Origin: Mustelus asterias
Lineage: Eukaryota
DNA: 64,000 bases
NCBI RefSeq assembly: GCF_964213995.1
Contig: NC_135813.1
Coordinates: forward strand, 14,074,001-14,138,000
Reading direction: 5' to 3'
Position numbers and translations under genes: made by a program. The number at the start of each line of letters is the position of its first letter. Within the stretch, counting starts at the first letter, position 1. This document shows positions 43,692-61,166 of this stretch, piece by piece. Under the pieces are notes generated by a model. That model was not told the origin of the DNA, did not search any database, and saw nothing but the letters and a program-made list of their open reading frames with translations.

Positions 43692-44838
43692 TGAGGTGAG
43701 AGTGACAGCCCTTGACATCAAGGCTCCATTCAACCGAGTGTGGCATCAAGGAGCTCTAACAACATGGGAATCATTGGGTATCGGGGGCAAACACTCCGCT
43801 GGTTGGAGTCATACCTGGTACATAGGAAGAGGTTGTGGTTGTGGAGGGTCAGTCATGTCAGCTCCAGGGCATCTCTGCAGGAATCCCTCAGGGTAGTGTC
43901 CTAGGCCCAACAATCTTCAGCTGCTTCATCAATGACTTTCCCTCCGCCGATGATTGCACAACGTTCAGTACCTATCACAACTCCTCAGATACTGAAGCAG
44001 TCCATGTTCAAATGCAACAGGATCTGGACAATATCCAGGCTGGGCTGACGAGTGGCAAGTAGCATTTGCATCACACAAATGCCAGGCAATGACCATCATC
44101 AATAAGAGACACTCTAACCACCGTCCCTTAACATTCAATGGTGTAACCATCACTGAATCCCCCACTGTCAACATTCTTGGGGTTACCATTGACCAGAAAC
44201 TCAATTGGACTCACCACATCAACACAGTGGCGACAAGAGCAGGTCAGAGGCTAGGAATACTGCGGCGAGTAACTCACCTCCTGACTCTCCAAAGCCTATC
44301 CACCATCTATAAGGCACAAGTCAAGAGTGTGATGGAATACTCCTCACTTGCCTGGATGGGTGCAGCTCCAACAACACTCACGAATCTTGACACCATCCAG
44401 GACAAAGCAGCCCGCTTGATTGGCACCACATCAACCAACATTCAATCTCTCCACCACTGATACTCAGTAGCAGCAGTGTGTACTATCTACAAGATGCACT
44501 GCAGCAACTCACCAAATATCCTTAGACAGCACCTTCCAAACCCACGACTACTTCCATCTAGAAGGACAAGGGCAGCAGATACATGGGAACTCCATCACCT
44601 GCAAGTTCCCCTCCAAGCCACTCACCGTCCTGACTTCGAAATATATCGCCATTCCTTCGCAGTTGCTGGAACAAAATCCTGGAATTCCCTCTCTAACGGC
44701 ATTGTGGGTCAACCCACAGAATGTGGACTGCAGCGATTCAAGGAGGCAACTCACCACCACCTTCTGAAGGGCAACTAGAGATGGGCAATTAATGCTGGCC
44801 AGCCAGTGACGCCCATGTCCCACGAATGAATAAAAAAA
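43692..44838 (+). mobile_element. CR1-clade family B LINE (RT to tail)
   Basis: ALDIKAPFNRVWHQG, GIPQGSVLGP, ADDC and YKAQVKSVMEY, with a GAATGAATA(n) tail. Confidence 0.92.
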
Positions 44839-57339: not shown

Positions 57340-58302
57340 TGATGCGCGATCGCACAGTTCCTCGGAGCCGCTGGGTAGAGTTGAGTCGGTGGCTGTACTT
57401 GCCACTATGTTCCCACGTGGTCGGTGGGGTAAGTTTCAAGACTTCTGGAGGCCGTTTCCATCGCATCAGCCAATTCTACCGTCTTAGCTAGGTCCAAGTT
57501 ACCTTGCTCTAGCAGCTGCAGGCGAATATAGGATGAGCCGATTCCCGCCACAAATGCATCTCGGATCAGATCGTTTGTGTATTGAGTAGCCGACACAGGC
57601 TTGCAATTGCAGGCTCTGGCTCGCTGCTGAAGTTCGCGCAGGTACTGTCCCGTCGTTTCGCCGGCCTGCCACCGTCGAGTGGCTAGTAGGTGACGAGCAT
57701 GAATCTCGTTTGGTGGTTTATGGTACAGCTTCTTGAGTAATTCGATGGCCTCTTTGTAGTCTTGGGAATCACGGATTGTTGCATACACAGTGTCGCTTAC
57801 CCTTGCGTGGAGGACCCGCAATCTGTTGGCGTCGTTTTGGACTGCTGTTGAGGCGTCGATATAATCCTGGAAACACTTCAACCAATGGTCGAAAGTGTTC
57901 GACGCTCCAGCGGCATGCGGATCTAAGGTTAGCCGATCGGGTTTCAGCATCTGCTCCATTTTTTTTTCCAGAACAAAATTTGTTGCGAATAAAATTGATG
58001 CGCGATTAATTCACTCGGGAGGCTAGATCGTACCCGGGAATAAAGTCTTTTATTCGCAACAAGAATAGAGCATACTGCTTAACAATACAATCCCAGACTA
58101 AAGGGTCACTAGGAAGTGCAGTGACCTTTATACTCCTATAGGGAGGCGGAGCCAACCGGAGTGCACCACAGAACAATGCTAACAGGTGGAACACCCCAAC
58201 CCTAACCCCAACAGTAACAAGAGTAACATATGTACAAGTACCCATAGTGATAACCATCTATGGTTCAGTACCCATAGTGGTAACCATCTATGGTTCACCA
58301 CA
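57340..58302 (-). mobile_element. Gypsy deletion derivative: 5' LTR, gag N-terminus and last 11 nt of the 3' LTR
   Basis: LTR 57996-58302 (TG..CA, TATAAA at 58127-58132, AATAAA at 58049-58054). TSD CTCAG at 57335-57339 and 58303-58307. Confidence 0.92.
57405..57959 (-). CDS. Gypsy Gag N-terminal/capsid-like region (truncated)
   Basis: 184-aa ORF starting about 36 nt after the LTR: MEQMLKPDRL, RHLLATRRWQAGET, LIRDAFVAG and IRLQLLE. Confidence 0.85.
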   Translation of the reverse strand: MEQMLKPDRLTLDPHAAGASNTFDHWLKCFQDYIDASTAVQNDANRLRVLHARVSDTVYATIRDSQDYKEAIELLKKLYHKPPNEIHARHLLATRRWQAGETTGQYLRELQQRARACNCKPVSATQYTNDLIRDAFVAGIGSSYIRLQLLEQGNLDLAKTVELADAMETASRSLETYPTDHVGT

Positions 58303-59149
58303 CTCAGTTTACTTGATGCCCTAAGGTCTATCAGAAGCATCCATCACACTCTTTCACAATGTAGTCAGAAGCTTGTTCCTAGCTCACTAATAGATGTTAA
58401 CATATTTTATTAAGCTTTTCCCTAAAGCATTGCATTAATCACCACCTGTCCTACTGTTTTCCAGATTTTAAATCTCATTTCTTCAGGTCGATTCTTTGAG
58501 ATCACCAGGCTTTCCAGATTCTCAAATCCTTTTTTTACCACACCAACATGTTTTTAAAAAATAGATAACAAAAACAAGAATTCCATGACAATCATGAACA
58601 AAACAAGAATTAGTCCTTGTACCAATTCATTTTAAAAACTAAAATAAGACTGAATCAAAAAAGTATTTGGGAGTGGAAGCATAGAACTTGTATTAGTACA
58701 GTAAAAACAGATTGAAAACTAGTTGATGATTTGTGCTGTGAGATTTTTAATTTGGGCTGATTAAAATTAAATTCCACACATTGGAAAAATGATTGAATGC
58801 TGCAACAAGTCTAAATGTCAGCTGCACCTAGCCCATTAATTTGCTAAATTCACCGATTTTAGATTTATTTGAATAGGGCTTCTGCCCAAATCTCATTGGC
58901 CTGGATTTTATGCCCCGTTTGCTATGGCTGTAAATGCTGACGTGCAAAATATTGTGTCAGCCGAGAAACAGGATTTGCACCGGTGAGATTTCCCAAGGCA
59001 ATAATCCCTGCAGCCCCTCCCCCTGCCTGGAACTGCATTAGCACACATTTGAATATCATTAGCGGACAACCCCGCTATGAGCTCTCCCCACTTTGAAAAG
59101 TCCACCTCTGGTGTTGTGACGTCACACCAGCACAGTTTACAACAGATTT

Positions 59150-61166
59150 TTTAATAGGAAGCAAAGAGTTGGCATAAATGAGTCTTTTTCTGATTGGCAG
59201 TCAGTAACTAGTAGGATTCCGCAGGGATCTGTGCTCGGACCCCATTTGTTCACATTATATATTAATGATTTGGAAGAGGAAACTGAATGTATTATCTCCA
59301 AATTTGCAGATGATACAAAGTTGGGTGGGAGGGTGATCTGTGAGGAGGATGCAGAGATGCTTCAGTGTGATTTGGACAGGCTGAGTGTATGGGCATATGC
59401 ACGGCAGATGCAGTATGTTATGGATAAATGTGAGGCTATCCACTTTGGTAGCAATAATAGAAAGACAAATTATTTAAATGGATGTAACTTGAGATAGGTG
59501 GATACTCAGCGAGACCTTGGAGTCCTTGTGCATCAGTCACTTAAAGCAAGCACGCAGGTACAGCAGGCAATAAAGAAGGGATGCTTTGCTGCAATTGTAT
59601 AGAGCATTGGTAAGGCCACACCTGAAGTATTGTGTACAGTTTTGGTGTCCTTATCTGTGGAAGGATGTCCTTGGTATAGAGGGAGCACAGCGAAGGTTTA
59701 CCAGGCTGAATCCTGGGATAGTAGGTCTGTCATATGAGGACAGACTATGTCGGTTAGGATTATATTCACTGCAGTTTAGAAGAGTAAGAGGGGATCTCAT
59801 AGAGACTTATAAAATTCTAACAGGATTAGATGGGGGTAGATTCAGAAATAATGGGGACGATTCTCCCATCGCGACCCGCAACTTTTCTGGCGGGTGGGGC
59901 TGAGTGATGCGCGTTGTCGGCCTTTTTCCAGGATTTGCGCAAGCGCTGGGAACGCATGCACATCTCCCAGAGCCAGAGAACAGTCGGAGTCCAAACTATG
60001 CTGGAAACCGGTGGGAAGATAGATAAGTGATTTAAATTTTTTAAAAATATGTTTTGCATGCAATTATTGGGAACTTGTCACAACTGATCGAATCACCAGG
60101 AATACTTCATTCCGGCGGGGTTTAGAGTAGCTCCCCATATTTGGGGAATGAGCGGGAAACTCCGCCGGAGTGAAGGGCGAGCAATCGGGGCCCCCCAGGG
60201 GGTTGGGCGGCAGGAGGGTGGTGCCCCCTGGGCATGGGCACCCGGGCAGTGCCCAAGGGTGCCCACCGGGCATCGGGCAGTGCCAAGGGAGCAGGGCTTA
60301 TTCTGGGCAGGACCTAGGGGCAATCGGTGGGGGTGGGGGGCCCGCTGCCACTCTGCATGGCGATCAGTCTGGAGCAGGCTTGGGGAGGTGATGGTGGTCT
60401 GCAGGGGGCAGGGGGCCTGTCTCCCGGGGAGGGGAACTGACCCCGGGGTGGGTGTCAGCGGGGAGGGGGGGGGTCTGTTGGGGTGAGGGGGATGGGGGGA
60501 TCGTCACTGCTGGGGGGTGTGGGCTGGACATCAGGGTGTTCTGGGGTGGGGGGGGTGCAGTCAGGGCTGGCCCGGGAATTGTCGTGGGGGCTGTGATCGG
60601 GCCGTGTGGGGGGCTGGAGGGGCAGCACTGTGGCGGTCCTGGGCTGGCCAGCAAATGGGGAGACTGACAGATCGGGACCTTGCGCATGCGCAGAGTCCCG
60701 GAGCTGTCAGACTCTGGCGTGCCCCCCCAGGTTTTTAATGAGATTCCCGATTGTGACCTCTGCATTGCACAGAGTGCGGAGATTCAGGTCTGAATATGCA
60801 CTGAAAAAACAGTCGTGATCCAGAACAGTTTTCCTAACAATTCAGCACTTTTGGGAGAATCGTTCCCAATGGTGGGGGAGTCCAGAACTAGGGGTCATAG
60901 TTTGAGGATTAGGGGTAAACCTTTTAGAACTGAGGTGAGGAGAAATTTCTTCACCCAAAGGGTGGTGAACGTGTGGAATTCACTACCACAGAATGTAGTT
61001 GAGGTCAAAATGTTGTCTGATTTCAGGAAGAAATTAGATATAGCTCTTGGGGCTAAAGGGATCAAGGGATATGGGGGGAAGGGGGGACCAGGATTTTGAA
61101 TTTGATGATCAGTCATGATCAAAATGAATGGCAGAGCGGCCTCAAAGGGCTAAATAGCCTACTTTT
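59150..61166 (+). mobile_element. CR1 LINE 3' part, interrupted by a MITE
   Basis: GIPQGSVLGP, KFADDTKLGG, LVRPHLKYCVQFW and RRNFFTQRVV, then the tail. Confidence 0.9.
59853..60867. mobile_element. Non-autonomous Harbinger-type element with GC/G-tract-rich core (1015 bp)
   Basis: TIR GGGGACGATTCTCCC/GGGAGAATCGTTCCC (14/15), with AAT on both flanks. Confidence 0.88.

Follow-up and report, generated by a model that had tools for sequence, protein, structure and literature searches.

A primer-binding site complementary to the element's own LTR points to self-primed reverse transcription in a clade of animal Ty3/Gypsy elements

The primer-binding site (PBS) position of a Ty3/Gypsy element of Mustelus asterias is occupied by 15 nt that are exactly complementary to a segment inside the element's own LTR. 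This pairing is real, conserved and covarying throughout the clade to which the element belongs. It lies in a fixed register with respect to the end of the LTR, and integrated by-products are found that have their junctions at the PBS and at the predicted end of the primer. The best explanation of these observations is that reverse transcription is self-primed by the internal LTR segment, cut at AAAA^GCC (where the caret marks the predicted cleavage), and we would place the probability of this at roughly 0.78.

The element copy in the window

The window is the 64,000-nt stretch of contig NC_135813.1 that was analysed. On its minus strand nucleotides 57994-57980 are the exact reverse complement of 58062-58048, i.e. 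over 15 nt. From base composition, such a match would be expected by chance in a 307-nt LTR with a frequency of about 3.5e-7. The initial annotation had described a 15-nt exact complement separated from the LTR end by a single A, with AATAAA inside the partner, and this was borne out by direct comparison and by the paired LTRs of full-length copies. The features of the copy are as follows.

57996..58302, minus strand: 5′ LTR of a truncated Ty3/Gypsy copy, 307 bp, TG..CA; ends from paired LTRs and target-site duplications in 20 full-length copies
58237..58296, minus strand: 30-bp tandem duplication in U3 (family D4)
58127..58132, minus strand: TATA box TATAAA, from the sequence
58095..58101, minus strand: initiator-like motif YYAGTY, the predicted transcription start being the A at 58099
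58048..58062, minus strand: predicted self-primer segment, 15 nt, complementary to the 15-mer at the PBS position and covarying with it; includes AATAAA at 58054-58049
58047..58048, minus strand: predicted cleavage junction AAAA^GCC, from the RCC(T) kept after the duplex and the junctions of class B fossils (see below)
57996..58047, minus strand: 52-nt loop (the rest of R and U5), predicted template of minus strong-stop DNA; in the fold of the window leader there tends to be a stem that opens at the cut
57995, minus strand: single unpaired spacer base A between LTR end and PBS (offset +1 in 27/29 families)
57980..57994, minus strand: primer-binding site, 15 nt, no TGG, from the complementary 15-mer and from fossil products that end or restart there
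57347..57959, minus strand: start of the single gag-pol frame, ATG at 57959, stop near 57405; 97% identical to full-length copies

The family reads AAAA^GCC at the junction, and the window copy carries a private change at 58046. This copy is a truncated relic, comprising the 5′ LTR and about 650 bp of gag, that ends near 57347 and has no 3′ LTR. The LTR end at 57996 is also marked by the loose ends of contigs from runs X1-X5, which revealed no transcription start, poly(A) site or GT..AG joint and count neither for nor against any of these. Elsewhere the window contains a fragment of a related element at 1-492, with 79% identity to the protease/RT region of the family, and decayed fragments of a LINE-type reverse transcriptase, which we take to be CR1/L2, as open frames at 59120-59903 and 43996-44778.

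Full-length copies and identity of the element

Twenty full-length copies were taken from the 40 best-matching copies in the 3.68-Gb genome. They are 4.1-4.7 kb in length, with two 307-bp TG..CA LTRs, the 3′ one preceded by a purine tract. The 5′ and 3′ LTRs part directly after the CA that maps to 57996. The 5-bp target-site duplications are exact in 15 copies and match at 4/5 positions in three, with two copies unscorable owing to incomplete 3′ LTRs. The 15-mer at the PBS position, preceded by one A, is intact in 18 of the 20.

A natural open frame of 1,308 residues encodes protease, RT, RNase H and integrase in the Gypsy order, as assigned using Pfam. The best match of the clade protein to a solved structure is Ty3 Gag-Pol (E 6e-54); the similarity to Ty3, of 186 bits, is close to the 175 and 170 bits found for two non-chromovirus outgroups. 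A Pfam scan of the open frame and 20 relatives found no chromodomain at the integrase C-terminus in any of the 21 polyproteins. The host genome has 17 chromodomain matches, none with an integrase nearby, so that no chromovirus was found there. The nearest named protein relatives come from rays and catsharks (about 74-86% identity over RT-RNase H), and the named relatives as a whole, compared as proteins, belong to cartilaginous fishes, a sea anemone, a sea cucumber, nematodes and insects.

In a quick RT tree of 66 rows, from which L273 (no RT match) and L137 (too short) were left out, 53 rows including the named proteins form one clade with an SH-aLRT of 99, apart from 13 outgroup rows. Most of the latter have ordinary TGG-type sites. 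Placement by RT phylogeny, which the initial annotation had called for, sets the clade apart from outgroups that are neither chromoviruses nor Cigr-1. Literature searches using YLDN with retrotransposon, and using Cigr, gave no usable reference by which the clade might be named. Viral contigs that were scanned contained no relative. We note that contigs with full Gypsy elements occur in genomes labelled as bacteria (L131-L139, G001-G004), likely as contamination from animal hosts.

Covariation of the pairing within the genome

The genome has 4,746 matches to a pattern that leaves two bases free on either side of the pairing, against none for the reversed control. In the first 60 copies fetched in order, both free positions are complementary in 56, with eight dinucleotide types represented. 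When the free positions were permuted the mean was 10.3 complementary copies, and the maximum in 10,000 permutations was 22. Among the pattern matches listed, 93 of 100 rows were judged complementary by eye. Note that the copies share ancestry, so the value of 56/60 shows several compensatory changes rather than 56. The duplex is exactly 15 bp in 48 of the 60 copies (L310-L369), across families with different primer sequences, and this constant length may be the footprint of RT or RNase H. In six copies (L163, L168, L259, L318, L320 and L384) the LTR partner and the PBS are of different subfamily states; these are possibly recombinants between co-packaged RNAs.

Conservation of the pairing across families

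Scans of metagenome and genome contigs provided 89 loci. In an inverted-repeat scan upstream of gag, with the LTR end not assumed, 47 out of 51 gag starts had an arm of 9 nt or more; these starts include copies of the same family, and two more had too little upstream DNA. A set of 33 representatives (five from the host genome and 28 from contigs) was picked by hand; they are related, and the counts that follow are not independent. The LTR end was located in 15 of them from a second LTR, and in the other 18 from the CA motif. In 29 of the 33 the sequence following the LTR is complementary to the LTR of its own family over at least 10 nt (median 14), and in 27 of these 29 the complementarity begins one base after the CA, i.e. 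at an offset of +1. Applying the same 10-nt threshold, complementarity was found in seven of 1,020 cross-family pairs and in seven of 3,300 shuffled LTRs, and in six outgroup elements with TGG-type sites the LTR complement is at most 5 nt. The four representatives below the threshold are L064 (5 nt), L089 (9 nt), L090 (3 nt) and L109 (5 nt), of which L090 and L109 each have one mismatch within an otherwise long arm. The TGG of a tRNA-type PBS follows the LTR in none of the 33. Covariation of the two 15-mers, proposed by the initial annotation as one check of its reading, is thus found both among copies of the genome and among families.

The primers vary between families, mostly ending AAA that is followed by RCC(T). 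That of L092 ends GAAGA, and its PBS compensates. A stem opening at the cut junction is stronger than in shuffled sequences in 24 of the 29 families. By contrast, a stem on the U5 side beside the PBS exceeds the shuffles in only nine of 29, and is not conserved. We also note that the 5′ LTRs of L085, L099, L101 and L104 have pyrimidine-rich tracts ending CAG upstream of the primer, with a GTAAG in L099, which suggests from motifs that there may be an intron inside the LTR in some families of invertebrate type.

Predicted promoter, primer position and fold of the leader

In the families of the host genome, 57 of 60 copies have a TATA-like box 78-88 nt ahead of the predicted cut, and 55 of 60 have an initiator-like YYAGTY, with its A 31-34 nt after the TATA. 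This spacing predicts that transcription starts 37-41 nt upstream of the primer. For the window copy the start is predicted at 58099, 37 nt before the partner, which would give a fragment of 52 nt to the junction. The motifs are clear only in the host-genome families, and no clear TATA/initiator promoter was found in the metagenome relatives. The initial annotation had placed the partner internally, probably not at the cap, and the conserved spacing of TATA and initiator supports that placement with respect to a predicted start.

The z-scores for folding of the whole leader are modest, at -1.3 and -1.7, and were given no weight in favour of the pairing. In the predicted fold the 5′ partner, 52 nt from the PBS, forms the duplex.

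Misbuilt insertions as probable fossils of priming

Five families were searched for copies in which the PBS continues as the complement of the leader, and 45 were found. Eighteen of these (17 by script together with L400) fall into class A, comprising an LTR, an A and an inverted LTR, with a 5-bp target-site duplication at the two U3 ends that is exact in 17 and matches at 4/5 positions in one. The formation of class A must precede integration, and its simplest source is plus-strand strong-stop DNA in which the end copied from the PBS paired with the LTR partner. It marks the PBS as the place at which the minus strand is primed, but does not tell which RNA acts as primer.

Class B consists of six solo LTRs from two families, all with exact duplications, in which 7-29 bases of the start of the minus strand lie directly behind the last A of the primer. 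In five of the six the sequence then resumes at GCC, the predicted cut, and in the remaining one further down. This is as expected if strong-stop DNA ends at the AAAA^GCC cut and jumps onto an aborted self-primed product. It is likely that these rare misbuilt insertions record the mechanism of priming.

The remaining 21 of the 45 are of various kinds. In three of them the start is 5-14 nt ahead of the junction, one (L408) has an arm that stops at the initiator motif, the only arm of the 45 to end at the predicted cap, and several have short extensions or larger inversions. Some individual copies may be described. In L373 and L380 (at about 1505-1545) the PBS continues as leader complement for exactly 38 nt and no further; in L373, which carries an exact target-site duplication, the U5 end is then rejoined. 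L372, L375 and L376 (at about 1440-1790) are inverted-LTR products whose other end starts about 5-14 nt upstream of the predicted cut, that of L372 having an exact target-site duplication. L371 and L384 (at 1505-1530) and L314 are otherwise ordinary copies in which the PBS complement extends 4-10 nt further into the leader, as if the primer had been overcopied.

A proposed mechanism for self-priming, and which copy of the partner would be used

In the mechanism that we propose, transcription would begin about 37 nt upstream of the partner, which would then pair with the PBS and so close off a loop of about 52 nt, at the base of which there would be a stem. By analogy with Tf1, the RNase H of the element might cut the RNA where the duplex ends on its 3′ side, at AAAA^GCC. 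The 3′-OH so freed, on a capped fragment of about 52 nt, would prime minus-strand DNA one base outside the LTR end, and synthesis would proceed to the cut and then transfer to the 3′ R. The initial annotation had raised self-priming as a candidate function, and this is now well supported by the covariation, by the register one base past the LTR, by the absence of TGG and by the fossil junctions at the cut.

The primer could instead be supplied by the copy of the partner in the 3′ R, or by a second packaged RNA, cut behind its poly(A) signal, with the 5′ copy remaining whole or being cut separately. If AATAAA serves as the poly(A) signal and transcription starts upstream of it, the partner lies in R and is thus present at both ends of the RNA. 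For this reason the restriction of the duplex to the 5′ LTR, as stated in the initial annotation, is correct locally, but pairing with the PBS could also involve a 3′ RNA copy or a second RNA. The class B fossils read as U3, leader, primer and minus-strand DNA, with no visible second junction, as such a source would give; however, ordinary transfer through the leader accounts for the U3 part, and five of the six junctions suggest that the 5′ template ended at GCC. L382, in which pol, PPT, U3 and primer are joined to a minus-sense copy extending beyond the cut by about 50 nt, to the vicinity of the predicted cap, also has the structure that a 3′ primer would generate, but the same structure is expected from an inversion between the PBS and the 3′ partner. 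Moreover, it is the 5′ partner that lies just 52 nt from the PBS, and the leader is predicted to fold with this partner in the duplex. We therefore regard a primer from the 3′ R or a second RNA as improbable, and self-priming by the 5′ copy as the more probable route.

The poly(A) signal within the predicted primer

In 19 of the 29 families the primer ends in AATAAA or ATTAAA (AATAAA in 12), and in the host-genome families the primer holds the only AATAAA near the end of the LTR. Folding predicts that this AATAAA is almost fully paired in 5′ contexts, with a probability of being unpaired of about 0.01, compared with 0.58-0.64 in the 3′ contexts of three copies from other families of the host genome. 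These data might be taken to mean that the duplex serves mainly to hide the poly(A) signal of the 5′ LTR from premature polyadenylation, while another RNA acts as primer. In the window's own family, however, the AATAAA of the 3′ LTR is also predicted to be mostly paired (0.12-0.16 unpaired), so that the contrast between the two ends is weak there. A canonical hexamer is absent from the primer in 10 of the 29 families, and an AATAAA separate from the primer lies downstream in L051 and L135. For masking alone there would be no need of a register held at +1 from the LTR end, and a PBS occupied by the duplex would be closed to any other primer. Furthermore, the fossils tie the site to DNA synthesis. 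Masking as the principal role is thus very unlikely. That the self-priming duplex also hides the 5′ poly(A) signal as a side effect, in the host-genome families, is a reasonable possibility that we put a little short of even.

The poly(A) switch suggested in the initial annotation is not the core of the conserved arrangement, given the 10 primers that have no canonical hexamer, the primer ending GAAGA with its compensating PBS, and the restriction of the hairpin to subfamilies. The local GAATAAA hairpin exists in some subfamilies, but the AGAC loop that had been described is private to the window copy, the 20 full-length copies reading AGCC. As a conserved switch the local hairpin was rejected, since it is found only in subfamilies that read GCCTTTATT after the cut.

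Replication accidents and host RNA primers as alternatives

It is conceivable that the pairing does prime, but that the class B junctions arose as replication accidents after insertion, the end of the primer or the cut being made in some other way, e.g. by a host nuclease. Inverted repeats promote template switches at replication forks. All the class B inserts end in A, matching the run of A before GCC, so a fork switch between the inverted repeats that returned by microhomology could give the same junction. Such a switch needs a 5′ LTR with the PBS still following, yet all six class B fossils are solo LTRs. In addition, class A, with its two U3 ends and target-site duplication, cannot be made by one simple rearrangement of an integrated copy. 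We attach still less weight to this explanation than to masking.

The least probable explanation is that a host tRNA, a tRNA fragment or a small RNA primes, and that the match to the LTR is coincidental or has arisen as a side product of copying. Priming by half-tRNAs is known in Copia lineages, according to the available part of the source (PMC6317226). The tRNAs of the host were sampled only: an Rfam search gave 63 scored matches, mostly of one Lys(TTT) cluster, and each of the 12 loci scanned was a Lys(TTT) gene, with a few Thr, Val and Tyr genes nearby. Nevertheless there is no TGG, and a host primer would need to end AAA. The genome has at least eight PBS variants, with some 25 more elsewhere, each of which matches its own LTR and not that of another. 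A host RNA primer cannot plausibly track these family-specific variants. The 15-mer has 242 genome matches in which the 3′ context is not that of the LTR; among the first 100 listed, 99 can be read as PBS sites, and all 30 that were fetched are PBS sites of element copies. No credible Rfam match was found; three matches in the LTR region are at chance level, the best with an E of 2.1.

A primer built by splicing was also considered, and is unnecessary because the partner is contiguous.

Implications of probable self-priming in this clade

To our knowledge, self-primed reverse transcription has been demonstrated only for Tf1 of fission yeast, and it is treated as the hallmark of one subgroup of chromoviruses. 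A separate and very abundant animal lineage, with thousands of copies in one vertebrate genome, now appears to self-prime with a different geometry. Two questions are touched by this, namely which of tRNA priming and self-priming is the older in LTR elements, and how often RNase H has learned to cut RNA duplexes. The misbuilt insertions lead to predictions, at the level of the base, of the end of the primer and of the cut, making the mechanism testable with a short RNA and an RT domain. On the practical side, tools for finding LTR elements that need a tRNA PBS will mis-score the whole clade.

More speculatively, an animal-wide clade of non-chromovirus Gypsy elements may have invented self-priming independently of Tf1, cutting the RNA behind its 5′ poly(A) signal and using a capped leader of about 52 nt as primer. 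A single duplex would then make the primer, destroy the 5′ polyadenylation site and set the overlap for strand transfer, and the genome would keep fossils of both the cut and the aborted priming. We consider this complete scheme to be possible, with the odds somewhat against it.

Comparison with known systems

The priming of this clade is not described in the available parts of PMC3601003, PMC13524379, PMC6238403, PMC6934838, PMC11042837 and PMC3670739. No earlier report of self-priming in a non-chromovirus animal Gypsy clade was found in a literature search that excluded subscription journals and notes in Repbase and GyDB.

The Mag-like, tRNA-primed Gypsy elements resemble the clade in their Gag (about 22-37% similar), single ORF and short LTRs, but they differ in having TGG-type sites and an LTR complement of at most 5 nt, and are far away in the RT tree. 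We presume the name Mag-like for these outgroup elements from their TGGCG-type PBS and weak Gag similarity. In HIV-1 the polyA hairpin is an RNA pairing that hides an AAUAAA near the 5′ end; it is local, and priming is by tRNA-Lys3. In the present clade, by contrast, the partner strand is the PBS itself. Cigr-1 of Ciona intestinalis has one ORF of about 1,200 aa and short LTRs. The clade resembles Cigr-1, as described, in these two respects. The Cigr-1 clade is present in molluscs, as stated in the part of PMC6238403 that is available. Skipper of Dictyostelium is described, in the accessible text, as having neither a tRNA site nor an LTR complement (PMC5006619).

The closest parallel in mechanism is with the Tf1/sushi group. 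From the portions available of the sources (PMC7175516, PMC10085805, PMC4600332), Tf1 and Tf2 of Schizosaccharomyces pombe, Tj1, Tosmo1-3 and Tcry1 have no tRNA site, and the PBS by the 5′ LTR is complementary to part of that LTR. For Tf1, the primer is freed through an RNase H cut at the duplex edge; the same step is predicted by analogy for the present clade. The Tf1 primer is the RNA's first 11 bases, with RNase H cutting between bases 11 and 12 (PMC7175516, in part), and a structure of three duplexes around the PBS is common to the Tf1/sushi chromoviruses (PMC10085805 and PMC4600332, each in part). Unlike these elements, the present clade has a one-base spacer after the LTR end, and its primer usually ends in a hexamer like a poly(A) signal that is followed by RCC. 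It keeps just one flanking stem and has no chromodomain (0/21). Thus of the three-duplex pretzel of Tf1 the central duplex and the stem on the cut side (24/29) are present, while the stem on the U5 side (9/29) is not enriched. Since neither a chromodomain nor the full pretzel was found, we have not filed the element in the Tf1/sushi group. The initial annotation had cited the self-priming of Tf1/sushi-group elements, a likeness that stands insofar as the PBS complements its own LTR; membership of that group is not supported, with a chromodomain lacking from 21/21 proteins.

Self-priming has also been predicted for plant chromoviruses of the Tcn1 clade and for the TAR (Houba/Osr) lineage of Copia elements, based on complementarity of at least 10 nt that starts 0-5 bp after the 5′ LTR (PMC6317226, available in part). 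These are other lineages in other hosts, where self-priming is a prediction only, and the same available portion (PMC6317226) describes no link to a poly(A) signal. The case of TAR suggests that the trait of self-priming can arise more than once.
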